Part shown: piece after piece, positions 1 to 50,929 of the stretch | Layout: each line of letters starts with the position of its first letter | How positions within the stretch are numbered: the first letter of the stretch is position 1 | Source of the DNA: Psammoneis japonica | Lineage: Eukaryota | Length of the DNA: 64,000 bases | Direction of reading: 5' to 3' | NCBI GenBank assembly: GCA_008632985.1 | Contig: QPGO01000225.1 | Location: 1-64,000, forward strand | Position numbers and translations under genes: made by a program | The notes under the pieces: model-generated | What the model saw: only the letters and a program-made list of their open reading frames with translations | Told to the model about the DNA's origin: nothing | Database searches by the model: none

Positions 1-3000
1 CTGTCCAACTTCTCACCTTTGCAGATGACACATCCCTCATTGGAGCCTGCACTCCTTGGGCCACACCATCCAGCCCTGTTTTTTTTAGTTTGATTTGGTG
101 GAACAAGACACCAGCAAGAATGCAACAACCTTGCAGCAGGATTTTTGCACATTTTTCACTCCAATCAGTTTGACTTTCTGCAGCAAACAGTGATGCACTT
201 GATGGCAAACACCACAACCGCATTTGTGGCACCATCTGGAGCACTCATTGCTTCAACTCGTGCACTGTTGTCACAACCCACCATGTTGTCCAGAAAACCC
301 AAAGTTCATTGTGCACCAGGGCAAGGCATCCAAATGCCAAAGAAGAGGATTGCACTCTTGCACAGCTGACACACATGCAAAGGAACTGCCAGAGGACCAG
401 CATTGCACACATGTCTGTCTGAAAAAAGTCATTTGCTGCCACACAGATTTTGGAGCAATGCAAGAAAGGATTGACACCCTTGGTCCACATGAAGGCAGCT
501 GCACCCAAATTTCCAACATTGTGGGCAGAACTTTCAACAGCAAGCATTTCTGGTGCTTCATCAATGCCCAGCTGTTTGAGAATTTGGAAGGACAGCACAC
601 TTCCCATGATGTCCAAGACACTGAGTTTTAAGGAGAGAATGGAGAATTGCGCTGTCAAGAACATGGTCCCTTCACCATCATTGATGGGCTGGTGGCATCT
701 CCCAAGTGAGAGTGGAGCACAAGAGAAAGTTGCCAGCAAAGAGAAGCAATCTGCACAGTTTTTCCAGTGAGACCAAGCACTTTGTTCATTGCTTGTTGAT
801 TGACTGGCAACTTTTGCATGGATTTGCAATTCCTCCAGGAAGAAAACAGCATGCAAATTGTTGAGAATTTGCCAGCAATGGAGCCCATGGAATCCATGGT
901 CAGTTGCCTCCCGGCTGTGATCTGCAATCACTGGTTTGCCAATGATCTCACCTGAGTCAACCACAGTCAGTTTCACATCCAACCTGCTTCCTTCTGTCTT
1001 TTGTGGCATCTGTCTTTTGTGGCACGCCAATTCAGAAGAATCTTCTTGCTTCATTTGGTCTCCTCAAACAAACCTGGTTTTGTCAGCATCTTGCTTGCTG
1101 TTGGACTGCCCATGTGTCTCAGGTTGTGCAGCCATTGCTTGTCTCCTGTGATGTTTGTGCATTGGAGTCAGCCTTGGTTTGAGCAAGAAGCAATCTGAGA
1201 TTTGTCAGATGAAGCCAGGTGGTGCAACCATGGCATGTCCAGAAGCACACACAGCTCATGGCAGCTCAGCATGTGCCTGATTGAGTTCTTGATGAATTGT
1301 GTGGTCTCCAGGGAAATGCTGGTTTCTGTGGTGTGGAGTGGCTGGAACAGCAGGAGGAGGTGTGACTCTCCCTGATGGGCACTGCATCTGTCCAACACCC
1401 CTTTGGACCAGTTGATCCAGGATGTTGCATTCTTTGGCAAGGATTTGTTCCCTCAGGTTTCACAGATGTTGAATCAGCTCCAACAATTCTGAGCCACACC
1501 CACTCATGTGCTGGTGTGGGTGTGTCAAGAAATGTTGTTGCTGATGTTTCATTTGCAGCTGCTCCCAACCAAGGCATCAGATCTCATTCCATTGAATCTC
1601 CTCAAACAAATGAGACCATTGCACTGCATTGGTTGCAATGCACTTCCAGGTGTGTTGAACCCTCCCAATGCCACATCAGCACAGGACCTTTCCCATGTCC
1701 CTCTGATGGGCCAGAGAGCTCCAATGTGAAAAGCTGTCTCAATGGAAATTGCACACACAACAACTTGTCTGATCACTGGGTTTAACAATGAGATTTTTTC
1801 ATGCCTTGATCATGAAACACCAAATTGTTGACAATTAAAACAAGGTGGCTGTTATGACGCAATTGTGGTGAATGACACACTGTTTGGTGAGGCTGCTTTT
1901 TGCAGTTCATGCCACCAAAAACAAACAGCAATGCTGGCTGAGGCGGGTTTTGCTCATGCTTTGTCTCCATCACCCCTTGCCATGCATTGCCAAAAGTGAG
2001 CTGCACCAACAATGGGAGGCCCAAGCAAACTCTCTTTGCCAAGTTCAGCTGTTGATGCCACTGTTTTGGAGCATTTCCTTGAACAAACACACAATTAACT
2101 CAATCATGTGTGGCAGTCCAACAAAGCAAGGAATGCTCCAGAAATTGATTCTGTGCTGTTGGCAAGCAGGTGTCATTTTGCCTTGTGCAATGGAAAAAGA
2201 GCTCTGCATCACTTGTGACAACTTGTTTCCAGGTCATGTCAATCTCACTCACTGTTTGTCATGCAGGGAGGGATGGCTGCCACCAGAAAAGGTGTTGAAA
2301 AAACTTTCCAACAGCAAGAAGAAATCTGTGTTCAAAGGGATAGACCAGTTTCAGCGGGTGACCAAAACACTTGCCAGAGACTTTGATGAACTCAACAGTT
2401 GTCTAACCCTCTGGAGATTGATGCTGAGGCTTTTTCTGCCATCAAACACAGCATGCCATGGAGCCTAAAGCACGACACACTTGATTTGCAAATGGATGGA
2501 GTTGACAACAAAATCTGGGTGCTGGGCACAGCCAAGAACAGAGGCACTGCAGTGGTGGATGTGTCACCCTTTTCGCTGTGCAACGGCATTGGCAACACAG
2601 AAGTCAGGCACATCCAGAAGATGGGAAAGAAATGCATGATGCCAAAAGTTTCCTTTTCCATGAAACAACACAAAGAGGTTGTTCAAGCAGCATGGAAAGG
2701 GCACACAAAAGCTCTGTTGCAATGCTGCACCCCTCCAACGTGTTGTTGCTTGGCGCATCTTTGGAAAAAAAAACATTGGAAAATCTGAGCTGCTTCAGTT
2801 TGTCACGTTGGAACTCCAAGCCAGTCACCTGGGATGTTTGCCACACCCCAGCTGCAATGCATGTTGGGAGGGGGGAACACAATCCCCTTGCTGCTGCCTT
2901 TGCATGACACAGCAAATGTGTGCTTGGTGTGCCATTGCCATTGTCAGCCAAAAAGGCAGTTGTGGCAACAGACATCAATGACAATGGAAACTCTGCTGCA

Positions 3001-6000
3001 AACTCAGCCCCAATGGCCAAGATGGTTGTTGAAGAGGATTTTGTTGACAAAGCCAAGTTGCATTTGGAAGAAGAGGATGAGTGCTTCATTGATGATTCAC
3101 CACAAGCACTGTCTTGGTGTCCTTGCAAGAATTCTCCCTGGATGTGTCTGCTGTGCATTCCTCCCAACCCACAACAGATTGTGGAAAAACATCAACAGAT
3201 TGTGACTTGCTGTCAATTGAACCTCCTGATGATGGCAGCAAACCTTCATTGTCCTTGGGCTCTCTTTCCTTGGAAACAGCAGACCCAAGCATTGTGCTGC
3301 AGTTGTTTCAATTTAGCCAACATTGCAAAGTCATGGCACACTCATTGATTCACCAGCATTCATCCAAATGTTTGCTGTCCAAATGTTCCTCTGTGATGTC
3401 AAGGAAAGAGTCACGTTGCACCGTCCAGTTCTTGGTGGAATGACAACAAAGCAAGCAGCATCCTCCATGCAGTTGGGAAATGGGCGAAGTGGCAACCTCA
3501 TTGACAGAAGAACAAAGGTGGCAGACAACACATCCAAAGCTCACAGTGGCAATCAATCATTTTGAGGTCAAGGATTTGTGTTTTTAGCAGGTGGTTCCAA
3601 AAACATCTTAAGAAGACAGAGCTTTGCAGAAACCACCAAAAAATTGTTGGCATTGCCACACTGTTGTGTGCAAAACAGGAAGTGAAGAGAATCATGGAAC
3701 TTGGATGTGCTGCAAAGTCTGGACCCAGAACAACACCCTCAGAATGGGCCAACAACAAACTGAGACAATTTAAGATGTTTGAGAATGCATTTCTGAAGCC
3801 AAGTGTGAGAAAAGCTTTCCTTGTTTGAGGACAGGGACAATGTTTCATCCAATCCAAAAGACATGAACATCAGATGGGCAAAGGGACTCTCCAGTGGCTT
3901 GAGGCTTTTGTCTTCCTTTGAAAGCACGCCTTTCATTGCAGCAAGTGTTGCAAGCAACAAACCGGGATGCTCTTGGCCAGATGGACAAGTCTGGTCAGTG
4001 ATTCCAATCTTGAACAGAGCTCTTGCAGCATCTTCTGATCACTTTGCCTCTTGGGTGCATGTGCAAGAACAACTCCAAAGCATCTCTTGAACTCAGCTTT
4101 GTCAAATGGCTTGGGAAGCCCCTTGAATGTGAAGGATGGTTGATTGTCTGTTGTGCGTTCCTCATCACCGGAATGGTTGTGACACCACAACAACTTGTTT
4201 TCCAGGACTTGGCACAGGTGGGAGAAGGGACAGAGCAGATGCTTGTAAAGGCCCAAGTGCAAGGCATGCAACAGTTCCCAGGGGAGCATGCTGAATGTGC
4301 CATGCCTTCCTCTGCCATTGGAGAGGTCTCACAACACAGGACAAGACAAATGAATGGTGTCTTGTTCCACCAAATTGAAGCTGAACAAGGGATTGCCACC
4401 AAAAGTGCTGTCGCATTTTGCAGCCCCCACTCATCTGAGATGTGTTGCCACAGTGGGAGTTGCAGTGACAAGCCATGCTGTTGTGGCCTTTTGCATTGCC
4501 AATTGTCAGGCACAATCAAAAGTGGAGATGGACAAAGCCAAGAGATGGCACCAAAGTTGGGAAACCAGTCTTTTGCTTTGACAGTTGAAGCAACTTGGCA
4601 AACATCTCCCGAAATGTGCCATGGCAGAACTTGATGCATGTCTCCTGTCTTGGCTTTGACTGATGGTCAGTGGTGCACACTCATTGCTTGTCTTTGGGTG
4701 TGGCAGCACCATTCCAAGTGTCAACCAAAGGGAGTGGCTGCAGCAATGCTGGTCACTTGAATTGCCAAATGTTGCAAGGACAGGTTGTGCTTGCAAACAA
4801 CCCATGTTGTTGCAAAGGGTGGAATCATTGAACAGCACAACTGGGCAAAGAAGAAAGTGTGACTCAGAAGAGCAGCCATTGCCCAGCAGCTCTACAAGGG
4901 AACAATTGACATCATGCTTGGCTTGCTTCCACCAGTCTCCAGTGGCAAAGGAGTCACAAATGATGCGCTCATTTGTTTTGGGGCAGCACTTCTCCTGTTG
5001 CAACCATTGACATGGCTGGACAACCTGGGATTGTGGAACACCCTTCTCACACAATGCAGAAAGGAAAATTGGTGCACATGCACTGGGGGGGACTCGGGTC
5101 CCACATGTGCACAGCAGAGCACAAATGGGCTCTGGGCCAACACAATTGGAGCACACGGCTTTCATGCATCTCAAGGCAATGAAGCAGGACAAATTCTTGC
5201 ACTCACAGTCACTCTCCTTGGCACAAAATCATTGCACAAACCATGGGAGAGATGATGCTTTTTTGTCACAACCAACTCTTCCTCCACTGGGTGGAGCTTC
5301 TTGTTGGTGGTGTTGGTTGCACAAATGTGCGGAGGTTGCAACAGTTGAGCTTCTTCCATCTCCTCAAAATCCAGTGCATCAAGCAGTGCAAGCCATCATC
5401 TTCTTTGTGGACACTGCAATCTTTGTTGTTTGTCCTTTTCCCTCGCAGCAAGAATGAAGTGCAGAGAGGATGCCAAACTCCTCCTCCAAAAATGGTGTGT
5501 TGTCATGGCAGAAACCATCATTGGATGGGTCTTGAGCAAGAGGGCCAATGCTGCATTCAGCCAGCACTGGTGCATGATGAGAATCAACAATGTCATCATT
5601 GAAGGAGAGAATCACTGACAGGAGAAAATGGAAAAAGGTGTCATGGATCATTGTCATAAACAGACAGGGACATGAGTCCTTTGGCCCTTGAATTGGGGGA
5701 ATGGTTTGAGAGGTCCTGGTGCATCAAAAGAGCTGAAGGCACCATTGTTGCTCAGGGAGTGGTTGGGAGAGGAAGATGCATTGTTTGGGCCAAAATGAAA
5801 GAAAAAAAACTGGGGATGCCTTTGAAAATGTCAGTGGAGAGCACACTGCAACTTGTTCCAGACTTGTGGCAGGTGGTGCGCACTTGCCCCTTTTTCGCAC
5901 AAGACCAGAATTTTTGTGTGCTGTCCATTTTGAAAACAATCAATGCCAAATTTGCCATCAAATTTTTTGTGATTGAATGCAGTCTCCAAGGTGGAAAATT

Positions 6001-8170
6001 AGAAATGCATGTCTCCGTGCAGATGATTGGGAAAACACACCAAGGGATTGAACCTTGAAGCTCACTCCTTGCCTCACAAAGCAGCTTGTCTTTTTTGCAA
6101 CTTGTTGAATCAGTCCAAAGGCTTGTGCTGCAGAAACTGACACAAAAGAGCGTCGCAGTGACTTGCAAACAAATGCCTCACTGCAAAGGCATTGGCCACA
6201 AGCACAAATCTGGCACTGGGCATGACCAACAGCCCTCAAGGAGAAGGAGATGCATCCTTCTGTTGCATCCTTGAGGAATGCACCCACTTTGGCTGCTGGC
6301 TCCAGCAGAGATGTTGCTGCTTTGCATGGCAAGCACAACATCTCTTCTGTGGTCGAGGGTGCAACTCTGCCAAAATTGCAGTTGGCGCTGCTGTTGCTCC
6401 CAACCAAAACCAAAACAGAGACAACAGTTTGCATGTGCAAGAATCTGCCAGTGCATCATCTGATCCAGCCCATGCCACAGTCCAAATGCATGGTGCAAGG
6501 AGCCACCTTGGCAATTTCTTGCAAGCTGGGAACAAGACATGGTGCTCTGGTGGGAAACAGCTTTCTCAGTCATCCAAAGCAATGGAGACGAGGGTCACCA
6601 TTTGACAACAGACTTTGACTCCGGGGCTGGACTTGTCATTGGCAACAGATGCATCATTGTCATCATCATCCAGGCACTGCATGAGCTGTGCAAGGAGAGA
6701 GAAGTCAGCATTGGGGTGGCTGGAGGGGATCCCAAGAGTGCCAGCGGGATGGCTGTTCCATTTCTTTCTTTCTTTTGGAGAGCAAGAAGGAACCTCATTT
6801 GAAACAAAACAATGATGCAATGCAGTTTGAAAAGAAAGTTCCAATCTGGGGCTGGCAGGGTCTGAGAAAAGACTGGCCATTGGCAGATCCAAAGCTGCTC
6901 TTCTTCCAGCCATTTCCAGGCAGACCAACCCATGTGGAAGAGGCAAACTGTTCTTTCTGTTTCGGCTTGAGGCACCTGTGCATCAAGTCATGAACTCTCA
7001 AGTGGACAATTGCCAAATTCTTCATTTTCTGGCAGTTGAGATTCTTGCAAGTCCTCAAAAATGTGTTGCGCATCTGCTCTTGCACCAGCTCACAACAGCA
7101 GGCTGTTTTTTCATTCTTCAGCAGATTCTTTGCTGCACTGCACTGGATTGAACTTTGGCGCTGGTGTCAATGCTGCAAGCACAAACATCTTTGGCTTCAA
7201 GCACTGAGAAAAGACAAGCTTGAGCCAGTGGCAGGTGTTGCCAAACTTGGACTCAAGAACATGAGGGAGGAAAAGAGTCCTCACTGTGGATGCAGCAATG
7301 CTCTGAGTCTGTGCAACAAAATTGCTTTGGCAACGAGGGTGCTCTTCTGCAGAAACATCGAGCAGCTGCAGAGACTCTAGACTCAACAAGCCAGCACATG
7401 CAATCCACCATGGCTGTCAGGTTCTTGCCACAGCATGGGAGGTTGTTGAAGGCCTCCAAAACTTTCTGGTGCTGAACCACAAACTGCCCTGTGGCCTTCT
7501 CTTTCTTCTTGTTGTCCAACTTGCAGGTCCAACCATGGCTTCAAACACAATGGAGCCCACATTTGCATCCAAGAGATTGACCTGCAATGTCATTGACAGC
7601 AACCACTTGCTCAAAAAAGCTGCACAATCCATTCTTGGGATTGTGCTGCAAATGAGGCAGAGCTGGAAAGCCGGTGGTGGGCTTCCACGTGAAGCCAGCA
7701 ATGAAAGCCTTCCTTGCCATTTGCGCCTCTGTTGTCCTCTTGAGTCGACGTTTGGCAACACAACATTGGCCATTGCAGCTTGCAAGTGCAGCTGCATTGT
7801 CATCCTTCTCAATGACTTGCAAAAAAGAAGAAAGGAAGCTGGCAACTCCGGCCTGTCTGCACTGTTCCCATCATGAAGATGCTCTGGGAAGCCACAGAAC
7901 CAGACCGACTCGGGATTGTTGGGATCCACATGATTGTTTTCTGTTAACTTGATGACAGCGTTGAACATTTGGCTGAGGTTGCATCCGTTTCCATCATCAT
8001 TGCTCGCAACCATCGAGTTTTAAATCCCTCAAAGCTGAGTCCTTGCTGTTGAATGCAAAGGTGTGTGCTGCGCCTGACATGCCGCTGCCACCCTGTGACT
8101 GGCTGATGTCTTTCTCTTCTTGGCCAAGGTGTTTGCACAGGAGGGGCATGGTCCAATGCTTCACACAACA
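1..8170. other. TpA/CpG-depleted hypermutated domain (decayed repeat or TE sequence, family not identified)
   Basis: TA is very rare over 8 kb and CG is rare, with TG/CA in excess. ORFs in all six frames are nearly Tyr-free and Cys/His-rich. No coherent protein family recognised. Confidence 0.8.
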
Positions 8171-8229
8171 TTGAACATAAACCAGATCCACATTCTAGGC
8201 AGCTAAACCAATTTCACTTTAGTAAATTA

Positions 8230-10187
8230 TCACGACTCTGCGGCCTTCGAAATCCTCTTTTTGCTCCAATGTGAGGTTGATTTGCCCCAAGCAAAAACTG
8301 TTCCATTTTCCGCACTGTAGTGGACACGTCCATCCTTGATGTAGAAAGCCCCAGAAGTGTGGTGCTCCAGGTCGCCAGACGCGAATTGAATGGTCATCCT
8401 GTCCGTGATTCTGACTGCCTTGCCAAGCTCCGGGAAAATGAAGAACAGTTCAACGGCGTCTGCATTGTCTCGAACATCACCTACAAACTCATAGTGGCAC
8501 GTAGTTGGCACCGACAGTTGACCAAATTGGTCAAACCAGGCTAGAAGGTGCTCTTGCTCCTCGTCAGACAAACCAGGGCACTGCCGGATGTCATCTCGGC
8601 TCCTAATCTCCACAATGCCATCATGTTCGTCAATGTGGTTGGAGCAAAAGAAGGAAATAGTCCTGTTCCCAAACGTCAGTATTCCCCTGCCGCAAATTTC
8701 TCGAGGATCACAAAGCAAGATCTTCGAAAGAGCGCCAACCAGCAATCTGTCTCGGGTGACGGCTTGGCTGGCACCAAAGCTGCCAAGATGCGAGTGAAAA
8801 GCCGTCACTGCCGGCACCTTCAGATCCACATAGTGTTCCCGGTAGTACTGAAATTTGGCCAGGTCACCAGGTCCTTCGAGTAGGTTGGTCTTGTTCCTGG
8901 CCTTAAACTCCAAAGTTCTGAGAGAAAAGAAACCCTTTTGTCCATCAAACAGATTTGTCCCATCTGACTTGGAGTTGTGCCGCTCACCATACGCAACGCC
9001 AACTCCTTCCTTTGTTAGTCTCACATGGTTCATGTCAATGTCAAAGCGCTGGAAGGAAAGAAGAGTGGCAAAAGTTAATTTTGCTTGATTGCACAGCATG
9101 CCGCTTACAGAAGACTGCTCACCTGGGATGTTTGTCCGACCTTTACCAGCTTCAGCTCATTGTTATCCACCAGAAGCGTAAGTGCTATTCCGTGAGGATG
9201 ATCACGATGGTCCACTAGATCTAACGTTTCCTCATGCTGGGAAATCAAGAAGAGCTCAGCATCGTGTTCCCGAATCGACCGGCTGCCACACTTGGTGAAC
9301 TGAAGATGATCCTCCTTCGTGACATACGCTACCTTTACTTTCTGTGCATCACCTTGCAACACATACTTCACAGCAATCTTGTCTTTCATTTTTTCCCGTC
9401 GCATGGGACACGTGGACACACCCACTGACATTTGTTCTGGTTGGTTGTGCAGCCTTTCGTACCTCCGCTTCTTACGACTCAGGCGATTCTTCTTACCGGT
9501 ACGACGATTCTTCTTACCGGTACGACTCGGACGAACACTTGAAGTAATGATGTTCTGGGGCACAATGTTCTTCCTAGATTTGACATCATACACAAAGTCC
9601 GGGCCATGATAAGACGACTGTAAGAAGCCATCCAAGCTATCCCTGATCGTATCCCGATGACACAGCTCTATCCCTGGTACAGCATGCACCACATTGATAA
9701 ACTCGAATTTGCCCTTTACCGAATACAGATCAAAGTCAAGATCCGTCTTCTTTGTAAAGCAATCCCGTATAGCTGGAAAACCTTCTCGCCAATGTAGAAG
9801 GAAATCCGGAACAGGTCTGCCGTTTGTCTTCTCGCTCTTGACCATGCCTCCCTTCCAATCGTACACAACAAGCCTTTTTTTTTTATCCTCTGAGAGAGGA
9901 GACAAGTTCTTAACAACACACAGAGTGTGAGCTCCTCGATGAGAATGTATCGCGAGTTGGCCACAACTGTTGGCCACACCCTCAGTTCGAAGGACATGAT
10001 TGGGGAATATAACTGGGTACTGACAGCTAGAGTCGACTTTGATGCGGCTATTGTCGATGTGCTTCTTCAACAACACACCACGTGGGCTGATGATGTAATA
10101 ATGCTGTCTATACGAAACAGTATCGGAGAGGCGCTTGACGGTTAACTTCGACTCAAAAGAGTGAGAAAACTTAAACCGATGCGGCAT
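8230..10187 (-). CDS. Two-exon ~627-aa protein with a C-terminal putative TET/JBP-like 2OG-Fe(II) dioxygenase domain
   Basis: ORFs 9105..10187 and 8230..9099 join in frame through a 74-nt phase-0 intron at 9122..9049 (CAG|GTGAGC ... TTAAC ... TTCCTTCCAG|CGC). The C-terminus has FFCSNHIDEHD (HxD), FFIFPELGKAVRI and LEHHTS (distal His). Tyr and TA usage are normal. The gene model is firmer than the functional call. Confidence 0.6.
9484..9525. repeat. 21-bp in-frame tandem duplication (encodes RTGKKNR twice, basic and NLS-like)
   Basis: CGATTCTTCTTACCGGTACGA occurs twice back to back. Confidence 0.9.
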
Positions 10188-10338
10188 GGTTGCCGTAGAG
10201 AGAGGGACAGGGAGACACTGTCGTTGTCAGAGTGAGATGAAAAAAAGACAAGAGCGCAAGAAGTAAGAGTGGAAATTTTTGTGTGAGGATTTGCAGCATG
10301 GCTCACAACCACGCTGGCCTGTTTTTTCTGGTAAGGCA

Positions 10339-10808
10339 GAGCTAATAAAATCAGACATGAATAGATTCAATATTCATTTTCCCGCCCTTTTTTGACGCGC
10401 GGAAATTCGAAAATATCCAGTATCGCTAAAATAGAAGATCAAAGATCTCATTGCGCTATAGCTGGCCTGTCATTTTTTGTCCCTCCAAATACAGTATGTA
10501 CAGTACGTACATTTTTCCTCATGAGGGACTACAACAGGATTACCAACAAGATTTGGCGCGTTCCTTTCGCTTTCAAGTTCTTTCTGAGAGCTAATAAATA
10601 CAGATATGAATGGATTCAATGTTCATTTTCCCGCCCTTTTGACGCGCGCAAATTTTAAAACATGGACAGTGCATTCAAAAATGTGTGCAGTGTCGATAAA
10701 ATCAAAGATCTCAGTGCGCTGGCCTGTCATTTTTTGTCCATTTCCTCATGACTGCGACTGACAACAGGATTGCCACCAAGATTTGGCGTGTTCCTTTCGC
10801 TTTCAAAG
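10339..10808. repeat. Imperfect ~240-bp tandem duplication at the island/hypermutated-domain border
   Basis: Shared blocks GAGCTAATAAA, TTCATTTTCCCGCCCTTTT, ATCAAAGATCTCA, GCTGGCCTGTCATTTTTTGTCC and TTCCTTTCGCTTTCAA at ~10339-10577 and ~10588-10808. Confidence 0.85.
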
Positions 10809-13276
10809 ATCGACCATGGCGCCACCTCTGAAGCCTCCCAAAACACAGGAAGATGCAAAGAAGGCAAAGCTCTCTTTTGTGACCAACTTCTTCTCACAAA
10901 AGGAACGTTGGGTGCCCCTGCCAACCCAGAAGTTGGGGCAGCACACAAGGCAACAAAGGAAGGGTGCAAAACACAGCGCCTCTTGCAGCAGCTCCAGCTT
11001 GTTCCAGACAAGTTGAGCGAGATGCAGAGGTGAAGATCTCTTTGTGCATGTGATCAATTTTCATCACAAGATTCCAAGTGGCATCTTGTGGGCCTTCTGC
11101 ACATCTTGGTGCTGACTTGGGCGGCACTCAAAACAAAAGACTGCTTCGGCCCTTTTCCTCTGAATGCATCACATTGAGAGAAGTGCCGTGAAAAAGATGC
11201 TGGGGCAGCGGGGCCAATCATCAAAATGACAGCACATCATCTCAGCCAAGGTTGGAATGACAGGGGTTCAATGCGGAGCTGCGAGTGTGCTGCGTGGACA
11301 GGCCAGGCTCAAGAGCCGGCTCTGGAGAGCAGGGAGCTGGTGTGCCCGTGGTTTTCCCATCATGTGGCAAGGTTGAAAGCAGTTGAAATGCTTGGAAGAT
11401 GCAAACAAGAAGAAAGAAATGAGAGCCAAGCTGCAAGAGCTGCTTCCAGCTTCAAAGGCAAAGTTGCAAGAGAAGAGCGGTGACATCAGGAAGCCACACA
11501 CAAGAGGGGCTTGTGTGCCAGGTTGGGTTCTTGGAGCACAAGAGCTTGTTGGAGAGGCAGCCCATGCTGCGCAAACTCCTGAGAGTGCTGCCAGCACATT
11601 CCCAGAGCTCCTTCAGCTGTTTTTTGCAGCATTTCTTGGTGCGCCCATGCCCAATCTTTTCTTGCACAGCCACTGCATGGCTCTCTCTTTTTCTTTTTCT
11701 CTTTTCCTAGCACTGTGCTTTGCTCCACAAATGAGCCCCTGTTTTGACCCTTCTTCAGCTCTTCTTTCATTTTCCCACACAAGCGCAGCTGCATTTTCCA
11801 TCTGCTCTCCAGCACCAGCAGACCAAATGCCATGTCACTTGCCAGAGCCAGCCTGCTCTTCAAGCAACACTCAGCTTTGAGCTGGCTTTTCCATGTGACA
11901 CTCATGATGACAGCTGGTGAGAAGCCATGCACCTCCCCATGTTTCCCTCAACTGTTGCCCTTCCTCCAAGGGCTGCACCTTGCCATTGTTTCCTGTTTGT
12001 TGGCTCTTCTTGTTGAAGCTGAGCTGGCCTGTGTGGGCTGTGCACACACAACACAAGGTGTGTCAGCATTGGCCAGTGGCACTTGCCCCAGACAGCATCT
12101 GTGTCAGCGCCCATCTGCAACAGCAGCTTCTGCTGAAAAACTGATTCTTGAGTTCTCCACCAGCACTCTCATTTGACATCTCCTGTGTTTGTGCTTTGTC
12201 GATGTGGCGCGTGGCACATTGACAAGCTTGGACAACACAGCAACTCTCCAGTGCAGTCTTGCCCCTGCTCCTTGCTTTGCCCCCAGGATGTCACAACTTG
12301 GAAGCTGATGGGGAGATGGAGATTTTGAGCCAACAAGCCAATGTTGCCAAAAGGGAATCCTGTGAGAGGTTTCCTGTGCTGCTCTTTGCACTTGCCCTGG
12401 TTGCTGTGGCAGCTGTGATTTGCCTGGAAGTTCTCAATGAACTCCAGTCTTGTGACACAGCAAAGCCTGCTGATGCCACAGCACAATTTAAGATTGGCCA
12501 CACAAAAAGGTGCCAACGGGTGCTCTCGAGCTCCCAAAATGTTTGTTGAGAAAAAGCGCCCAGAACGCAGTCGCATGATGAACAATTGTTTTTTGTGCAC
12601 ACATGTGTTTTCCAACAAATTGCTTTGACCATTGAAGTGTTTTACCAGCCTCCATTCATTGGGAAACAGGAATTGATGAACAACACACACATGGCCAGAA
12701 AGCGCTCAATGAGAGCTTTCGATTAGTGTCCACACCTGAAAATTGACCATTCGAGCTGTTTCTAGCTCTGTTGGCACCTTTCCATGTGGCCAGTCTCATT
12801 TGTGCAAAGCAACCAGATGATTTGCTGCAAAGAGCAGGACAAAAAAAGGTTGGTGAGATTGGCAATGAACCCACACTTGTTGGCAAAGCAAGTGTCACAA
12901 AATCCACCATGTCAGCATCCAAAGCATCCTCTTGTGAACAACTCCAGTGCCACTTCCGGGTTCCACATGCTTCCTGCTCATTCCCAAAGCTCCAACACAC
13001 TCATGATGCTTGCAACCATGTTCCACTGTTCACATGACCCATGCTCATTGGGTTTGTCATTGTCTTGTGACAGCCTGCCCATCACTCTTGGTGTCATTGC
13101 CACCTGTTTCAGGACTCTTTGTGTCATCCTGCAAGCTGCAAGTTGCAAGCGTGCAAATGCACATGCTTGCCACTGTTGCTGCAATCAACCAAATTGTTGA
13201 GTGCACGTGCAGCTCCATCAACACTCTTCACAAAATGCTCCATGTGAGTTGGACAAGACTTTTCTCTGTCATTTTG

Positions 13277-13663
13277 GGCACAGTGCTGCTTCTCAAGTTT
13301 CAGTGGTCATCGAGTCTCATGGCAGAAAAACACTGCCAGATTTCTGGTGTTGATCTCTTGTGCAAGCGCACTTGTTCTGTCTCCAGGAATCAGCTCCCAG
13401 GACTTGCCAACATGATCATGATGAGACTTCTTTTCACTCCTCTTGCTCTCATCTTCTTGACCTGTTGTTTGGTCCATTGCTGAGCCGCCCACAATTTCTG
13501 GAGTCAAATCCAGGAATGCCATGTTGGCACAGTGCTGCTTCTCAAGTCTCAGCGGTCATTGGGGCTCATGGCAGAAAAACACTGCCAGGTTTCTGACATC
13601 AATCTCTCATGCAAGCACACTTGTTCTGGTGTCTCTGGGAATTGGCTCCCAGGACTTTCCAAA
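13277..13663. repeat. ~135-bp direct repeat pair
   Basis: GGCACAGTGCTGCTTCTCAAGT...CTCATGGCAGAAAAACACTGCCAG...CTCCCAGGACTT at ~13277-13410 and ~13527-13663. Confidence 0.85.
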
Positions 13664-16600
13664 ATTCTTTGGTCTTGTCTGCTTTTGCAGCATGTTCCAC
13701 AACTCCAGACACATCCTTTTGCTGCCAAAGACAGAGACAATGATTGGAGCAGCAGCGGTGATGTGCTCATGTGCTTCACAACTTGTTCCCTTTTCCACTG
13801 GGATGAAGTGTGCAGCCCTTTGTTTCAAGGTTGACACCTCAGATGGGTCAATGGCTGGCGGGCCAAACTTGGGTGCAGGTGATGCCATCATCTTCAAGCA
13901 AAGGGAAGTGGCAACTGGTTTGCCTTTGTGGGTCAAGAGCAAGATTCTGGTGAGGTTCTTGGAGCAAAAGAGCTCAGCATGGAGTTTGTCTTGTGTTTCT
14001 TTGGCTCAGAGGGTGGCAAGGGTGCTGGAAAGGGGGAAGTGATTGGAAGTTGCTCAAATCTTGTCATTGGCAGTGAGGCAGTGACTTGCAAGGGGGACTT
14101 GCTCCTGAAACTTGTTGAAGGTGTGGCACCTGCTGGCAACAGGGGCGGTGACATTGGGGGGCTTTCTGGACTTTGATGGAAACATTCTTGCTGCCACCAA
14201 GTTTGATGGTTGCAAACTTGGCATCTTCAGAAATGATTTTCTCAAGAAAGGAGCTTGTGCAGCAAAAGTGCTGCTGTGCCCCATGTTGTTTGGTGCCATG
14301 CAAAGGTGCCTTCTGGCACCACTGGAGCAGCAGCACTGAGTGATCCATGTAGCAACAGCCTTGACTTCTGCAGCAACCCATTTTGTTCTCTGGCGGCAGC
14401 AAATTTGAGCTCATTCAACTCCCAAATCTGCACGTGAGTTGATGCAGGGAGTGGCAGTTGGCTGACTCCCAAGGTGGGTTCACACAAGCAAAGAATTTTT
14501 CCATGATTTTCAAGCAGTTTTTGATGTGTGGCACTTTTCACCTTTGAGCTGACAGCCTCCACACATCTCTTGGTCAATGAGAAAAAAGGACCTCTTCAAC
14601 CTGTCTTGCAGCAAAGTGAAACATGGAGTTTTCTCTTTGCAACAGAGTGGAAGGCAGTGCAATGAGAGCTTCCACAAACTTGAAGCCAGGATTTTCCAAC
14701 TCCCCAGAGTCGCTGGTCAGAACAATCTTTTGAGATGGTGACAATTGCTTGCCCATGTTTTGAGGAGCTTGTTGCACAAAGGAGTCAAGCACTCTTGCTC
14801 AAAGAAGAGCTTTGACCCCCATTGCTTGCTTTGGAGCAACCCACACACTGTGGCAATCCTTCCTTGGAAGGGAGAGCAGGTTGCAGCTCCACATGAGATT
14901 GGCAAGAGATTGCAATGGACTGACCAGGCAAGCTCTCCAGCTCAAATTGCTTTGGCAACTGCAACCCCCTGACAAGAATGGCAAAGAAGGAAATTGAGCA
15001 CTGAAAAATGTTTTGCAATCCCGCAGCTCCTGAGCTGGTTTTCAACAATGGCTCCTCCAGTGCTGGCGTGCTGGTGCTGGTGGCTTGCATGGCAACAGTG
15101 ACTGGGACATTGAGGATGCTGTGAGAACAACCATGCTGCACTTGAAAGCAGAAAGGGTCCACTGTGATTTTGCAAGTTTGTGAATTTGGTCTTGTTGCTC
15201 ATGTTGAAAATTTGTTCATCTGCCTGCTGCACTTGATGAGCTGCAGCCCCCCACCCACCAGTTGACATCTGTTGGCTGGTCTGCCTTTCTTCCATGCACA
15301 TTGGCTGGCACATCTTTCAACTTCAAATTCTGCCTCCAAATTCTGCCAACATTTGAAGTCATGATGATCCTTCAGTCAACTGCCAATCCTCTGCCACCAC
15401 CTCCATCAGGGCCCACTCCTCCAAATTGCAGTGGCGCCAAGGCTTGCTCAGTCCTGCCATTCTGCCAACCACCATTCTTGTGACAAGAAGACTCCGCTGC
15501 ACATCAAGCAGGCTCTCCACAGAGAGGGATGGAGCAGACATTGTCAAATTTGGTGGCAACAATCTTCAGCTCTCCAAGCATTGCTCCAATGACCTTGATC
15601 AAGCTCATTTTGTGCAAGCTGTTTGCACTCCTGTCAAGGATCATCACAGCATGGAGAGTTCCTTTGTCATGCGCTTGGGTTCCATGGTTGTTGATCTCCT
15701 TGCTGTTGCCAAGAGCGGTTGCTTTTCCAATGTTGCTGCAGATTTCTGCACTGCAAGCATGATGATGTCACCCTGTTGCAGTCGGTTGCTGAGTCTTGAA
15801 CATCCTGTTGATTCAGGGAGAAGACCAAGGTCCAGTTCAGGCATGACAATCTGCTCCAGCATTGTCCTGGGCAGGCTCACATGACAATGGCAACAGATGC
15901 TTGCAACACATCTCCCATCCATGACACTGCACAAGCCGCCAAGGATCTTGAAGCTCTGTTGCAACAATCTGTCTGTCCCAGCAAAGATGTTTCCAAGTTT
16001 GCTGCTGAAGAACTTTGTCTCACCAAGCTCCTTTGATCCAGGCACATGTTGCCCATTGGATTTGGATTGGATGTCCTGAATCACAGTGAGGTCTGCAAAT
16101 GTTGGATGAGGTTTTGCTCATGAAACACAAGTGTTGCCTTGGCAGTCCCAAGACACTTGCCAGGGACTCTGACTGCAATGACCTGGGACCCACTGTGTGC
16201 ATGCATTGCACTCCTTCAACAACAGTGCTGGCTCTGCATTGCTGATGAGGATTGGCCTGGCTTCTTGACTGAGCTCCCCCCTCAGAGCCACAATGCCTCC
16301 AAAATCTGATGACAGCAGTGCCCAATGCTCCTGTGGAACCACAGCAGACCACTGGGCTGGCTGGCACAACCCCAGAAAAGTGTCCCAAGAATGTGGAAGA
16401 ACAACAGAAGCAAAAGAAAAAAGTGCCAGCAGTGATGGCAGACAAAAACAAATGGCGGCATCTCTCCTGCTGCTGCCAACACCTGCTTCCTGCATGTGCT
16501 GCTGCCATTGAAATTGCCCCTGCTGAGAAACAAGAGCCAAACTCAAGGAGTTGCTCACACCAACAGGCCCCGTTGTTGCACCCATCTAGAGGATCCCACC

Positions 16601-17499
16601 AAGCCCATTGTGAGCAAGTCTGGTTTGACCTGTTTCTGTGAAAAGTGCACTCTTTCAAGCACACTGGCGACACAGGGATGTGACATGCACAAATCACAGG
16701 AAACTGGACCACACTCACAAGCTGCCCAAGCAAGAGCAGCTTGTGGGTGACCTCACCTTCATCAACCATCAACAACCCATGCTCAGGCACCCACCTGGGC
16801 TGGCCACCCAGACTGCCTCAGATCCAACTGACTCACCCAGGGATGCTCCTGTTGGTGGCAAGGAACCAGTGTGAACTGGGCTTCATTGTGCTGCAGTCAA
16901 GTGTCCATCCCCTGCTGGCTCTGCACCAACTGCACAAGTCTGCTGCAAGCCAGCTCCTGCATCTCAGAGGGAGTTCACCAAGATTGTTGTCAAGAGACTG
17001 TTGAGCCTGAAGATGCTGGTGACTGCAGCATTGCTTCAGCAGCTGTGGCGACCTCTCTTGGGACAATGCTGGTGTCATGCTCCCCAACAAGGACCCTCCC
17101 ACAAGCCAGTTGGCACCTCCTTGACAACTCTGCTCTACCTGCCACAGAGCAGCACTGCATTGATGCCATGTCCAAGCCAAATCTGGCACCTGACGTGCTG
17201 CCTGGTGCCCCAAGCTTGCACCATCTTTGCCTGTGGCATCTGCTGAGGATTCTCTCCCCACCATGTCTGCCTGCTCAAATGTGCGCCCACCCTGTGTTGC
17301 CATCCCTGCCATGAGGGTGTCATTGCAAGCACAGTTGCTCCATGGCAATTTGTGCACAGTGGCTGGCCACACTCTTTCCCACCCCTTTCAGCCCTTTAAC
17401 TCCCCATGCTCTCAGCAGACTCACAATTTTGTCTCTGCTCTTGATGGCTGAGTTGACCTGTTGCCCAGTGTGCTCATCCAGCGCTGCTCTCTCAAGGCA

Positions 17500-19930
17500 T
17501 GACACAGCTCAAATGTGAGTTGGCGGTGCACTCAGACAGAGACAAGAATGACACACCCACTCTGCCTTTTGATCTTGCCAATTTGATGGAACTGAGTGAT
17601 GACAATGATTTTGTTGAGGTGTGCACACAGCCACCCACTGATCAGGAGTGCTTTTTGATGATGAGATGCTCCGCAACACTGACTGTTCTCCAGTCTGGAC
17701 ATCTTTGGTGCTTGAGGACAACAAGCTTGAGAGTGTCATCAAAACAAATCTTGAATGTTGTGGACTCAGTCACAAGTCAACCATGCCTGTTCTTCAAGGA
17801 TGAGATGATTTGAGTGGTCTGTGTTGATGATGCCAGTCATGCTGGAAAGGACAAAGGATCAAAGCCCTGGGGGTGCAAGATGAGAAACAACATCATGTGT
17901 TTGAGTTGCAAAACAAGCAAGAAGTTGACAATTTTCTTGGTGTCAAGATTTGCAAGACTGCAATGGCCCCAAGGAGTCCTGCTCACCCAGTCTGGCTTGA
18001 TTGGAAGGTTCTCAAGACAGCTGGTGCAGAGAATCACAGGTCAGCTTCCACTCCGTGTGCCACTGCTCCATGTCACAAAGATGAAAAAGCAGCCAAATTC
18101 AACAAGAGCTGCAATTGCCATGTTCCATTGTTGGTGTGTTGATGCATCTCATCAAGCTGCCCATTTTTCCTGCACTCCCAAGCACTCTCACATGGTTGGG
18201 GCAAGAAAACATCATGCTCCATGGCATTTGCAGGGTGCTGGGGACAAGGGACTCTGCCCATGCCCTGGTGACAACAAATGGATTGGCTGCTTTGTTGGTG
18301 CCAACTTTGCCAGCCTGTGCGGCCATGGGAAACTTGGGCTTGTCAGCAGATTGTCTGTGTGTGCCAGAAGATTGACTTTTTCACTGTGAAACCACTTGCT
18401 TTGAGCAATGAACACAAAAATGCTTTTAAGTGGGGCGCACTCCCTTGGCTGCAACAAAGAACACGGCAACACACACACACCACAAAATGCATTGAAAATC
18501 ACCTCTTCCAGTCTCTCCAACACACGAGGCAGCTCACATGTGAACCACCCTTGCTTGGCCTCAGCAGCACACCTGTGCAAAAAGTTGCAGAGCCAATTTT
18601 TTCCTGTTGGCCCCTTGGAGACACAGCCAGAGAAATCATTGTTGAGTGGTGACAACAAGAGACTGCTTGAATGAAAAAAAAAAGATCAGCAGGCAGCAGG
18701 GGTCAATCCTCTGAACCAAACAATTGATCTGCTGGCCCCATTTTTCCCACAATGACCCTGTGGACCTGACTGGCATCAAGTCTTGCACTGGGCACATGTC
18801 ATCTTGGGTCATGAGTGTCTTGTTCTGTGGGTTTTCATGCTGCAGATGCAGGTCATGCTTTCTGCTGTGGAGGCTGGCTCTGTTGGCTGTGATGCACATC
18901 AACTTAGCTCCAATTTGTGAAATTTTGAAAGGATTTCAGACTCACACATTTGGGGGCAAGAACTGCAAGACACCTGCCACTGCCAAATCCAGAGCCTTTT
19001 CAGATGCAAAGGAAGGCAAGATCCCATCCTTGATTGTGTGCAAGGACAGTCTGACCTCAAGCATGCCTCAACTTTGCAAAAATGACAAAACTGTCTCCTT
19101 GTGCAAAGCACATCAGCACTCCCTGCCGCTTGCTCTGCATGAAGGCAGAGGGAGGAGGCTCTTGAGATTCGTGGCGCTGAAGCTGATCCTTTCCAAGAAC
19201 GTGATGAGTGTTGTTTCAGCAACTGTGCAAGGTTTGTGCCACCCCACAGAGTCATGGCTGCCCACCAGCATGCCTCTTCCATCAGTGGTTTCTCTGGTGG
19301 CCCAAGTGCCTCCCACTCCACCTGCAGCACACCAACACAGCCTTCTCTGTGGCGTCACCAGCCCCTTCACTTTCATCTCTGCCCCAGGTGGAGCCTTCTC
19401 CAGGTCCTCTCTTGTCAGACTTGCCTCAGAGGGAGACAGCCCCACAGACACCACACAGTGCAAGGATCAGCCCTCTGTTGAAGCCCTCCACTCCCCAGAG
19501 CCTCTCTCTCATGGACCCAGCCAAGAGAGGGAGTTGCCTCAACCACTTGCACAGAGGAAGGAAATGCCTGCCACTCCTCCTCCCTTGCATTTGACTTGAT
19601 CTCATGCTCCTCTGCAGTGGCGTGGGCATGATGGATCCAAGGGATGTGGCCACTTGGCACACTTTGACAGCTGCATCCATGCACACAGGTTCAATCATGG
19701 GTGCTCCATTTCTGTGATTGCTCCCCAGGTCTGCAAGGCCACCACTTGCAAGAACAAGGATCCCAACATGCTGTCATGGGACAAAGCAATGCACCACCCC
19801 AGATCATGAGAAATGACAGCTGAACGTGTCCGCAGCAAAAATTGCTGCCCTTGGGCAACAAGACACATGGGCTGAGGTCCCTGCATCATCTGCTGAGTCC
19901 AGGATGCTCCTCCCTGGGATTGCTCAGCTT
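17500..19930 (+). mobile_element. Ty1/Copia LTR-retrotransposon pol remnants (RT/RNase H), degenerate and rearranged
   Basis: QPCLFFKDEMI*VVCVDDA (Copia DPCLF..YVDD), VDNFLGVKI, LTQSGLI, CFVGANFASL (YVDADFAG), DP..IKSCTGH (KSRTGY), and KDPNMLSWDKAM / KIAALGQQDTW from the RT N-terminus. Confidence 0.75.
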
Positions 19931-22258
19931 GAACATTCGAGACCAGGAAATGCAAAAAAAAACTCCAAAAATTGCCATCAAAGCAGTGATGAAATTGGAG
20001 CTGTTCTTTGTGAAGCACAAATTGGATGACAATGGAGACGCTCCCAACAGAGACACGCAGCTGGTGCATGAAAATCTTCTTGCAACCATCAGATGCACAG
20101 CTGTGATTTTGCCAATTGTAAAAAGTCTGTCAGTTGAAAATTTGGTGGCTGAACTTTCTTCAATTTGTTTTCATGGTGCAAGTTAAGAAGCAGGCAAGAA
20201 ACATTTGAGAGACAAGCATTGACCATCAGTCCATGAACAATTGTGAGTGTGGAAATCACTTTCAATTGCCTCCAACAGCAGTCGCGATGTCCTCTTGCAA
20301 GCAGCCCAGCTTTTGTTTCTTTTGCGATTCATTCTTGCAGGTCCTGGAACAAGACAAGGCATGCACTCTTTACACAAGGTGTGGGAATTAGTGGCACAAA
20401 GGCTCCTGACTTGTTGTCCACAACCCATGAATTGATGAGCAAGCACAAAGTGAAAAGCACTGTGCTCTGTCGAAACATGAGACCAAGGTGCATGAGATGG
20501 ATGTGAGTGCAGTCTCTCTTGAAGGTAACCTGGTCATCAGGGTTGCAGCACAATGAAGGCTCGTCATCCACAAGTGCCAGCCAGTGGCAAATGCCAAACC
20601 CACTGAGTGAGGTGCAGATCTGATGGAGCTTGATTGGAGCACAGCACCTTTGCTTCCAGAGAAGGACTGGCAGAGAAAACTTGACTGACGCAGAGAACCA
20701 TTGGAGTGTTTGACACCACATCGCCACTCAACACCTTCCTCAAGGCAAACCATGCTCTGCCCTTCAATTCCTTCCTGCATTGATCACAGAGCTGGAGCAG
20801 TGTGTGGTGACAAGCCAAGCATTGCCAAGCCAAGAGAGCTGAGAACCTTTGCTCCATGAGCACAAGCTTCCACACAGCCCACCATTTGTGGACAGCAACC
20901 CACTTTCTGGCCAGTGCATCAAAGTGGCAGCCAACAGCTGTCAAAGACTCTAAAAGGCGGCCCTTCTTGCTGCCAACAGCATCAGGTGAATTGGTTTCCA
21001 ACAAGCAAGTTGGGAGACCAGCCTCAGCGTCAACGCAAAGGTCCAAAGCATTGTTGCTGCTGACTTTCATGACAGCGCGGAGTTCAACATGTTGCGGACA
21101 ATCTGGGGGTGTGGCGCCCATCAATTCTTGTTGTCATGAGCGATGATCTGACAACTTCAGCTGCCAATGCTCTTCTCTGGGTGTCCGGCTGTGGCAACCT
21201 TGGTTGCGGCCGCCCGGTGCTCTCACGACACGGAGATGTTCCAGAAATGCCGTCAAGTTTTCTCTGACCAAGTGGTGCATCTGGCCATGAGAAGTGGAAG
21301 CATTGCCAGAAAACATCCACTCTGCACACAAGACTGAACTGGGTGGCATGTTCTCACCACAAAAATTTCCTTCAATGTGGCTGAACTTCAAGGGGGCTCA
21401 GGGTGGGAGTGAACGGGATGTGGCTTTGCCCAACGACAATGGCTGGATGGGATGAGCACTGCTTTGGGTTGAATGATCTGTCCATGGCTCTTGGCTTGCT
21501 TGCTGCAACTTGGCTTGGACAGTTGAAGCTGGTGGTTGATGCGGCCTTTTGCAAGCCATGCCGCTCTCATCATGAACGGTGCTTGAAGACATTCTTGCAA
21601 ACGAGAGAAGTGGCAAAAGCACAAGTGCCACAAGGTGCTTTTTGAGGATGTTGTGCTTGTTCTTTGTTCTTTGGGCCCTCACCCAATCAACCAACCACTG
21701 AGAGCCGCAAGATCCCACCCCCAAGAACTGGCCACTCTCCAACAGTGACGCAGCCTGGCTGCTGCTTTGCCTGTCTCCCAGTTTCATTGAAAGGCCACTT
21801 CAAAATCAACGCCAATCTGGGCAAGGACACACAAGTGTCTGTTGCTCCTGGGCTCCACTTCGTGAGCAGAAGCACCCTGCTGTGCGGCACTGTGCAGCAC
21901 GGCACTGCAGCGGGCGGCGGGCGCCAAATGCGCATTTTGAGACTTGGCATCTTCGCGATGTCTGGCGCCCTGCCCAGCGATTGGCTGCAGGGCGCTTTGC
22001 TGTCCCTGCGTCTCAGCACAGCTGTAGAAAATCGAGAAGAAGCTGCACTCATTTTGAGAAAGGACAGTCAGATCAAGATGTCAGCAGGGCTTGCCACGTA
22101 GACTCTACGTAGCACGCAGTATGTACACCCATCGCCCAAACAGTACATCGTTCACGCGCAGTATCGCGTAGATGTCAGCAGATCTGAGACCTTGCAGATG
22201 TCAGCACTTAGCACAGGCATGTTATGCCGTCTTATCAACAACAACACAAAACAGAATA

Positions 22259-23377: not shown

Positions 23378-23543
23378 GCAAGCTATACAATATTCTCTAT
23401 AGTTTTACGGTACATCACAGAAATAAAACACTAGATACAGTTTTAAAATAGATAGAACGGCCGAGTTCGCGACAAGCGTTCCACAGCCACTTATGAACCA
23501 CGTCCAATAGCGAGACACACAACACACTCGCTCCTTTACATAT

Positions 23544-33500: not shown

Positions 33501-33680
33501 ATCACTCATGGCCACAATCCGCGAAAGTGTGTGAGGGTGGTGAGTCAAAGTGCGAAGCGGGCGCTGGACCAAGGCACCGCGTTCCGCGGTTTAGTGGCTT
33601 GCTTGCATGCGCCATCCACAAGTTGCAGCACCGGCAGGTGCAGTGGGGCCCTGGCTGCTCTGCCAGTGGCTGGCAGGCCC
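27600..33680. other. TpA/CpG-depleted hypermutated domain
   Basis: TA nearly absent, contains a Gypsy remnant. Confidence 0.85.
28060..30400 (-). mobile_element. Ty3/Gypsy LTR-retrotransposon remnant (gag-like region, RT, RNase H), frameshifted
   Basis: LPRIQDIV.KRKGCKHFTKL, LELDEES, CFVDDV, KVNPLKCKWAVQETNFL, QLRSFVGAISCCRDMW, FEWTPACQKAFEEIK, DASDCQL, EKEMLA, VHTDHKNLTF. Confidence 0.9.
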
Positions 33681-34017
33681 TCTAGCTAGAGCCAGCTCCA
33701 CCATTCTAGGGCCCTCTCTCTGTCTGCGAAAACAGGGGGGGTGCCGACGGAAGAAGAGGGGGGGAGAGGGGGAGCGAAGCGACCCCGTTGCTGCTGCAAC
33801 AACAAGAGAGAAGGAAGGAAGAGAGGAGAAGAACGCAGCAATGGTGGAAGTGAGTGCAAGGTGCGTTGTGTTGTCGCATTTTCGTGGCGTTGAAGATGCA
33901 GATCATGAGCCTGTCGCGCATAAAAAATTTCCACGGTTGATTTTGTTCAGGCGCCACCGCCCCCCATTTCCCATCTTCCGTCTCGGCGCCAATTCGAGAT
34001 GCAACCATGGGCTGGAA

Positions 34018-37356: not shown

Positions 37357-37756
37357 TGATGATGTGTGTTCTTTCAGAAAGCCCCAAGTGTTGCAGCGTG
37401 CATTCTTAGAATGAAGCGTTCTGATTGGTCCAATCTTCCATCGGCAGGGGGCTTTCGTCGGTCTGCGAAAACAGGGGGGGTGCCGACGGAAGAAGAGGGG
37501 GGGAGAGGGGGAGCGAAGCGACCCCGTTGCTGCTGCAACAACAAGAGAGAAGGAAGGAAGAGAGGAGAAGAACGCAGCAATGGCAGAAGTGAGTGCAAGG
37601 TGCGTTGTGTTGTCGCATTTTCGTGGCGTTGAAGATGCAGATCATGAGCCTGTCACGCACAAAAAATTTCCACGGTTGATTTTGTTCAGGCGCCACCGCC
37701 CCCCATTTCCCATCTTCCGTCTCGGCGCCAATTTGAGATGCAACCATGGGCTGGAA

Positions 37757-40700: not shown

Positions 40701-41094
40701 TAGTGTGACTGTTTGGTAGAGTCAGAATTTGCGATTCTGCCTCCGCCGCCGGTGATGTTGTAAACCGAGGCGCATTTTTCCCCGACAACTTAGCGACTCC
40801 AGAAAAAGCTCGCTCCTTTGCTTTTTTCGTGGCTGCCTTTCGAGTCTGAGACTGAATGCCCATGGTGCTGGGAAGCTCATGGGAGAAATACTTCTCCATT
40901 CTGCTGCAATTCCTTCTCTCAGAACTCTCTTGTACAGGTCGGTGCTGATGATGAGTGAGATGAAAAAAGACGGGAGGAGTTTGAATTTTGTGTGTGGTGT
41001 CTTTGTCAGAGCGCCAGTGCTCAGACTGTGGCGCATCCGTCTGAGATGGATGAACCGAGGTGGCTGTGTCTGTGTTGCATTGATCGTTAAGCAA
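37757..41094 (-). pseudogene. Putative DDE transposase, copy 2, frameshifted
   Basis: Same protein split into ORFs 39070..41094 and 37757..39376 by a 1-nt deletion at ~39300 (AATGTTGCAC versus AATGTTGGCAC in copy 1). Confidence 0.75.
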
Positions 41095-50916: not shown

Positions 50917-50929
50917 GGTGCTTTCGCTT

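Follow-up and report, generated by a model that had tools for sequence, protein, structure and literature searches.

The TA steps that survive in a 64,000-nucleotide stretch of the Psammoneis japonica genome (positions 1 to 64,000 of contig QPGO01000225.1, G000:C225:1-64000, from an assembly of 91 Mb; hereafter the window) record a hypermutation by which, in transposon domains and after insertion, A:T pairs at TpA become G:C; it strikes both strands and proceeds far faster than CpG decays. Action at the level of DNA follows from the equal involvement of both strands and from the divergence of long terminal repeats (LTRs) after insertion. The observation was confirmed, and the process resembles a kind of TpA hypermutation that has been described only recently. 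Along the window, gene blocks with an observed/expected ratio (o/e) for TA of 0.54-0.61 take turns with TA-depleted blocks (o/e 0.03-0.10), in which TG and CA are raised. Contexts such as YTAR and RTAY denote the TA step plus one base on each side.

Surviving TA Steps in the First Domain

The first depleted domain (positions 1-8177) has a TA o/e of 0.036, a CG o/e of 0.12 and TG and CA o/e of about 1.8. Its edge is sharp, with zero TA between 8021 and 8178 and then six TA within 50 bases. Twenty TA steps remain in positions 1-8170: 15 YTAR (TTAA 8, TTAG 4, CTAA 2, and CTAG 1), 3 RTAR, 2 YTAY, and no RTAY. The preliminary description of this sequence had listed 15 YTAR positions and four exceptions, all of which are real to within 1-2 bases, but it overlooked a fifth exception, ATAA at 5657.

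Flanking base composition does not account for the YTAR excess. The expected YTAR share was 15-33% under five null models, compared to 15/20 observed: base composition predicted 0.25, xT and Ay dinucleotides 0.33, the normal domains 0.15, back-mutation of TG/CA 0.24, and all one-step neighbors 0.24. P ranged from 1.6e-4 for the least favorable null to 3.8e-9, and the composition, dinucleotide, back-mutation and gene-domain nulls were all rejected as the source of the excess. The comparison of depleted with normal domains that the preliminary description had proposed gave the same picture, with YTAR comprising 64/102 TA steps in the window's old depleted domains and 114/748 in normal ones. An "enzyme-like" specificity of the residual TA is a reasonable inference.

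Contigs of sequencing run X1, which may be the source sample, cover the stretch, their longest pieces at about 98-99% identity, which excludes an assembly artefact as the source of the TA loss. Among the 40 of 81 differences between X1 and the window that were inspected were three TG/CA doublets and the loss of the TA at 629.

The Flank Rule Measured Through Transposon Copies

The residue alone depends on an unknown ancestral supply of TA, and known TA sites were therefore tracked through transposon copies. Between an intact copia copy and a mutated relative, 181 TA sites became TG (75), CA (72) or other sequences (9) or remained TA (25). A-to-G changes in the same pair occurred at 64/118 TAT, 53/99 TAC, 16/61 TAA, and 19/86 TAG sites, and at 13/483 AAN sites.

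A second copia family of 28 copies (L056-L083, L096-L115; 6.57 kb with 347-bp LTRs) is young and forms a graded series. TA drops from 44 to 3 per kb along the series while CG holds at about 57 per kb until TA reaches about 11, which sets TA loss apart from CpG decay as the faster, distinct process. The choice between TG and CA matched at only about 50-70% of shared sites in most copy pairs, so the hits are independent and postdate insertion. The copy-to-copy variation is only suggestive of a present, line-limited activity.

A likelihood model was fitted to 22 of the 28 copies (237 sites), leaving out three that were non-independent and three below 83% identity. The rates for the base after the A, relative to A, were 3.9 (3.0-5.8) for C, 3.4 (2.3-4.9) for T, and 1.5 (1.0-2.3) for G. 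At the next position they were 2.2 for C, 2.1 for T, and 1.5 for G relative to A, and the effect of a T lying two bases 5' of the step's T was 0.31. Protection thus rises about 2-3 fold, on both strands, where an A lies two bases 3' of the step's A or a T two bases 5' of its T. The fitted strand ratio of 0.90 indicates no strand bias. The mutational signature derived from these alignments agrees with the earlier proposal that TAY (equivalently RTA) is the preferred target and that YTAR mutates more slowly; the direction of the preference stands, while its size is now refined to 3-4 fold rather than absolute, with TAG intermediate.

The model predicted that YTAR would comprise 63-71% of survivors at 3-6% survival given an even supply of contexts, or 55-65% given the element's own supply. 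The observed shares were 15/20 in positions 1-8170 and 142/216 in 85 kb of old depleted DNA, a set that includes the window and in which one duplicated locus was possibly counted twice. The per-position rate model thus predicted the survivor share out of sample.

The process was nearly confined to TA and to transitions. In the hit zones of 17 copies, 1799 TA strand-sites showed 1297 transitions and 16 transversions, compared to 73/3932 changes at AA, 74/5025 at CA, 37/5034 at GA, and 175/4129 at CpG. The non-TA contexts of A changed at 0.7-1.9%, and AA, with an o/e of 1.25, is not depleted and was hit about 40-fold less than TA. The rare A-to-G changes outside TA likewise favored a 3' pyrimidine. 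CpG transitions were raised about 5-fold in the hit zones.

Strand Outcome and Replication

After removal of suspect assemblies, 15 copia copies remained, in whose hit zones 31/472 RTAY, 96/620 YTAY, 25/125 RTAR, and 96/220 YTAR sites survived. The strand outcome gave a baseline-free test of the preferred target, and it came out as expected for TAY: YTAY sites became TG in 72 of 81 decided cases and RTAR sites became CA in 15 of 17, and the outcomes at YTAR and RTAY sites were split evenly. Six further families showed the same direction (YTAY, 188 TG and 85 CA; RTAR, 45 TG and 93 CA) with a smaller effect (C 2.1, T 1.9, and G 0.9).

Hits were independent of one another. No same-strand runs were detected (residual correlations of -0.04 to 0.01; 22 same-strand vs. 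17 opposite-strand pairs in sparse zones). Survival was not lower near CpG (14% within 3 bases vs. 8.5% beyond 16). Hairpin loops were not favored, as stem-flanked sites survived slightly more (rho 0.14, p 0.03), and distal GC found no support as a factor.

The rule was also present outside this genome. Among 80 metagenomic copia contigs the median RTAY share was 0.30, and near-zero values were found in L211 (1/88) and L206 (2/130), which are 98% alike and represent one lineage, and in L247 (4/92). The left 3.6 kb of L226 contained 11 YTAR and no RTAY among 15 TA, with CG intact and a sharp domain edge near 3600. All four contigs combined TA loss with intact CpG. They are at most about 70-74% alike to loci of this genome, in short stretches, and such divergence indicates that other organisms carry the rule. 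The flank rule was not seen in the other 76 of the 80 contigs, and most metagenomic loci low in TA had no YTAR shift. Ongoing activity in the metagenome found no support, as TA changes were a small share of the differences in five near-identical pairs.

Mechanism and Alternative Explanations

The data show the following scheme. Each TA offers two targets, one per strand, and the first hit destroys it. The rate on each strand is set by the base after the A, in the order C ~ T > G > A, and YTAR remains because RTAY has two fast targets and YTAR two slow ones. An A two bases out slows both strands, and hits are single and independent. The symmetry of the effect two bases out suggests that the shape of the duplex is read.

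With modest confidence, we consider the agent to be a host DNA adenine deaminase acting in silenced domains, given the purity of the transitions, the match in direction with TadA-derived editors and the precedent in Bigelowiella natans (see below). Such an enzyme would be recruited to silenced transposon chromatin, may read about 6 bp of DNA, either duplex or open for a short time, would convert A to inosine, which is read as G, and would often begin in the 5' portion of LTR elements. On sequence alone, attack on the A and attack on the T paired with it look the same. Candidate genes in the genome include a TadA-like gene, ADAT2, dCMP and other small deaminase-fold genes, and two A_deamin genes; neither among these nor among the polymerase and dioxygenase genes named below does any one stand out. 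By its sequence, the ADAT2 has N at the place equivalent to D108. The A_deamin genes are:

L116, on contig C40: A_deamin (ADAT1/ADAR-domain) gene
L118, on contig C79: A_deamin (ADAT1/ADAR-domain) gene

Relatives of the C79 gene list no other Pfam domain. Contig C79 also encodes, at L054:316-1791 (minus strand), a deaminase-fold domain and a DIOX_N/2OG-Fe(II) oxygenase in one 491-amino acid frame, a fusion that perhaps serves nucleobase salvage.

Several observations weigh against a deaminase. A_deamin genes of the C79 type occur widely among diatoms, and the genome matches looked like an ordinary complement, with no special or expanded deaminase among them. GA was the least hit class and stem-flanked sites survived slightly more, whereas the amphioxus deaminase BjADAT2 prefers GAA and hairpin loops; TadA editors show their lowest activity where the 5' base is A, but AA was not the lowest class here. 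The lack of strand coordination argues against a processive single-strand deaminase. A start in the 5' part of the element was seen in one family only and rests partly on flawed assembly. We regard more tentatively, as possible but clearly less probable than deamination as such, that diatoms and perhaps other algae of the stramenopile-alveolate-Rhizaria (SAR) group have a dedicated DNA adenine-editing defense against mobile DNA, shared with Bigelowiella, in which a natural enzyme would edit the A of 5'-TAY-3' in double-stranded chromatin, entering a transposon at its 5' end soon after silencing and spreading from there. If true, this defense would be the A:T counterpart of repeat-induced point mutation (RIP) and APOBEC and a natural duplex adenine base editor, and an enzyme of such a kind would be of interest to base-editor work.

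The same changes could arise on the other base of the pair. A dioxygenase may oxidize the T of RTA to a product of the 5-formyluracil type, which pairs with G and yields T-to-C, with a methyl-DNA reader aiming it at methylated transposons. Oxidized T mispairs, RTA and TAY are mathematically one and the same reading, the genome contains an AlkB-SRA fusion gene, and the raised CpG transitions imply that the hit zones are probably methylated. However, AlkB enzymes remove N-methyl groups and are not known to oxidize T, survival did not drop near CpG, and no TET/JBP match was found in the genome, a weak negative because the first look gave no candidate. We consider thymine oxidation unlikely. CG methylation is described for diatom transposons in the available text of PMC9998398. 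Error-prone repair of a nick or gap at TpA, whether by Pol iota, which would place G opposite T, or by Pol eta, seems a shade less probable than thymine oxidation. The genome encodes five Y-family polymerases (Rev1, Pol kappa, two Pol eta-like and one Pol iota-like), and Pol iota places G opposite T more often than A according to excerpts of PMC3031609. Transversions, however, comprised only 16 of 1313 TA changes, and neither same-strand clusters nor a link to CpG distance was found. Pol eta targets WA, yet AA was almost spared.

An adenine mark resembling N6-methyladenine (6mA), set symmetrically on the TpA steps of repeats and afterwards converted to or misread as G, would make the flank rule that of the writer. 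The protection of both strands two bases out is what a duplex-reading methyltransferase would give, but 6mA is not known to be strongly mutagenic, and we judge this improbable; the lack of an MT-A70 match was uninformative, as controls gave no signal either. No more probable is that stiff, A-tract-like DNA or nucleosome-facing TA steps were shielded from a context-blind TpA mutator. Survival of YTAY did rise with the number of A-run neighbors (49/484, 34/106, and 13/30 with 0, 1, and 2), and 16 of the 20 survivors in positions 1-8170 have such a neighbor. Shielding cannot choose a strand, yet YTAY became TG and RTAR became CA, so that differences in access or repair would cover only the symmetric part of the rule. 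Least probable by far, and largely refuted, is that the survivors are new TA steps from later mutation or assembly error, with contexts that reflect supply. Several survivors in positions 1-8170 do terminate T runs and the assembly has repeat misjoins, but supply-based nulls gave 24-26% YTAR, and ancestral TA sites followed through copies share the bias, as do metagenomic contigs assembled from short reads.

Comparison With Known Systems

The search for A-to-G hypermutation of nuclear DNA found one direct precedent, a 2026 preprint on an unrelated alga. According to the available text (Mettrop et al., bioRxiv 10.64898/2026.01.13.699255), B. natans undergoes TpA-specific hypermutation of integrated DNA of nucleocytoplasmic large DNA viruses (NCLDV) as well as of virophages, in which TpA to TpG/CpA was seen arising de novo, is active now in some lines only at a rate raised about 1000-fold, and was proposed to reflect deamination. 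Both systems show A-to-G/T-to-C changes only at TpA, yielding TpG and CpA on both strands, and the window shares with B. natans near-pure T:A to C:G change at TpA and a restriction to foreign or mobile DNA. The hypermutation described here resembles that of B. natans and may work alike. As far as that text goes, only foreign DNA is hit in B. natans, with transposon-like genes among the TpA-poor sequences, and here mobile DNA is hit and genes are spared. The two differ in supergroup, in target (transposons here), and in extent (o/e 0.45 in an NCLDV region vs. 0.03 here). The main text of the preprint gives no flank rule, although its Fig. 2B or Table S2 may show one; here the rule was measured. 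The per-position rate model, the baseline-free strand test, the negative tests, the LTR asymmetry (with the caveat of assembly errors) and the presence of the rule in other organisms are new here. No report of this hypermutation in diatoms was found in the literature within reach, which included few subscription journals. The flank rule is a fingerprint that allows comparison with B. natans, a screen of candidate enzymes and detection of the process in contigs, where RTAY falls near zero. It speaks against Pol eta and ADAR as well as against an activity like that of BjADAT2.

RIP of ascomycetes likewise hypermutates repeats by dinucleotide-specific transitions, in blocks with sharp borders. 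Its chemistry is the opposite, as it makes TpA from CpA, whereas here TpA is erased and CA and TG are raised; also, RIP pairing should mutate both linked copies, and identical LTR pairs were hit unequally here (62 vs. 16 sites). Both considerations excluded RIP. Unlike RIP, the change seen here cannot create a stop codon: by codon arithmetic, TA to TG/CA removes tyrosine codons and stops and creates no stop, and open frames therefore persist during TA loss. This retention of frames matters for annotating and dating diatom transposons.

The A:T phase of somatic hypermutation, which is due to Pol eta, has a WA motif. Like the present case, it changes A to G at TA, affects both strands and lies downstream of a promoter; it was rejected because AA was almost spared and transversions and clusters were nearly absent.

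TadA-derived editors also convert A to G in DNA, favoring a 5' T and a 3' C and disfavoring a 3' A as described in the accessible parts of PMC8989541, which matches the direction found here. They differ in being engineered, in needing single-stranded DNA, and in being far less strict for the 5' T. Excerpts of PMC10354150 describe amphioxus BjADAT2 as a natural ADAT2 that converts A to I in DNA with a preference for GAA, TCG and hairpin loops. These preferences do not fit our data, in which loops were not favored and GA was least hit. More generally, the hairpin or single-strand preference of TadA/ADAT-type enzymes was absent, as stem-flanked sites were not hit more and strand runs were lacking. 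Hyper-editing of retroelement RNA by ADAR shares A-to-G change and the preference for a 5' U. By the available text of PMC4373398, ADAR takes a 5' A and a 5' U with about equal readiness and favors UAG/UAU. RNA editing by ADAR should give sense-strand A-to-G changes fixed at reverse transcription and was rejected, as both strands are hit equally here, LTRs differ after insertion and TAG is slow.

Position of Hits Within Elements

Hits were unevenly distributed between the LTRs of an element. In the 15 copia copies, hits in the 5' LTR exceeded those in the 3' LTR in ten, the reverse held in three and two were tied; 62 sites were hit in the 5' LTR only and 16 in the 3' LTR only, with three copies showing 12 vs. 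0. More hits were in the 3' LTR in L068 and L066. Hits were concentrated in the element's 5' part irrespective of its orientation in the genome, with edges specific to each copy, and the gag-side interior was hit first in most copies. A 5'-to-3' front was seen in this one family, with a hint in L086, and was absent from the TA-poor families B-F.

Assembly errors bear on this asymmetry. Mismatched target-site duplications were found in 4 of 20 copies checked (L060, L078, L079, and L080), which are probably misjoined, and the 3' interior of L064 was replaced and lacks its twin's private variants. Because of these defects, copy pairs with the same flanks were rejected as examples of advanced fronts. 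Downstream flanks common to several copies of the family may reflect misjoins or conversion.

Several copia families (L120-L139) were TA-poor in every fetched copy and kept long frames and CpG, as if TA-depleted progenitors had gone on transposing. L025 kept a 1413-amino acid frame at a TA o/e of 0.32. A younger insertion of 530 bp, near 8165-8699 of the joined stretch in L073 (G000:C332), keeps its TA inside a heavily hit copy. At about 5152-5483 of L084 (G000:C160), a 300-bp element resembling a miniature inverted-repeat transposable element, with short terminal inverted repeats, lies inside a copia copy; it has at least 30 copies of 93-98% identity.

Other Features of the Window

The blocks and elements of the window are as follows.

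1..8177, no strand: old hypermutated domain of nested, decayed multi-copy repeats
3000..5850, no strand: multi-copy repeat with at least 13 other long matches of 73-80% identity
5851..6478, plus strand: fragment of a transposase-like element with a less mutated relative, L152 (77%)
8178..10697, minus strand: TA-normal block with two long open reading frames (ORFs) and a sharp border to the depleted domain
10698..22098, no strand: depleted domain with 18 TA (11 YTAR, 0 RTAY)
27753..33718, no strand: depleted domain
33719..41201, minus strand: young tandem duplication of a 3739-bp unit (98.5%) with long transposase-like frames
50895..64000, no strand: depleted domain with 44 TA (24 YTAR, 3 RTAY)

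Every matched stretch of the 3000..5850 repeat was TA-poor. No unmutated copy of positions 3000-4500 was among the 20 loci fetched of 60 matches, and the family had no Pfam match with stops read as X. Pfam searches of 30 ORFs and of the six frames of positions 1-8160, with stops again as X, gave nothing within 1-8170. The 5851..6478 element, which had no Pfam match, is presumably of the DDE transposase type, judging from motifs in P0121. All 14 TA of its relative L152 are lost from the window, where 8 are TG, 1 is CA, and 5 are other sequences.

The tandem duplication, which we take to be Mutator-like although Pfam gave no match, is partly depleted (TA o/e 0.19, CG o/e 0.80), and its second copy retains more TA close to the domain edge. 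Its copies differ at 54 positions: 17 single TA changes, 19 CpG changes, 10 in five TG/CA doublets, and 8 others. The preliminary description had most copy-to-copy changes as RTA to RCA or TAY to TGY, which is true of the TA changes (12 of 17) and overstated for the differences as a whole (12 of 54). It was right that some YTAR sites had changed too, as five of the 17 were of this kind. The residue is not yet rich in YTAR (27/90), as expected from a depletion that is only partial.

The edge of this hypermutated block adjoins a plus-strand gene (41608-43478) for an AlkB-type 2OG dioxygenase fused to SRA, a methyl-DNA reader, and its HxD motif apparently spans an intron near 42185-42283. Both domains are present in six longer relatives, and by its domain content the product is a candidate methylation-guided base modifier. 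A gene block with normal TA (22172-26814) contains Kelch, ankyrin-AAA and alpha/beta hydrolase frames. Named relatives of one host gene include proteins of Attheya, Skeletonema, Cylindrotheca, Cyclotella, and Seminavis. Direct repeats of 397 bp with 90% identity (53380-53776 and 57855-58249) flank a 918-amino acid frame and are likely an LTR pair; their differences are nearly all transitions and include at least 10 TG/CA doublets.

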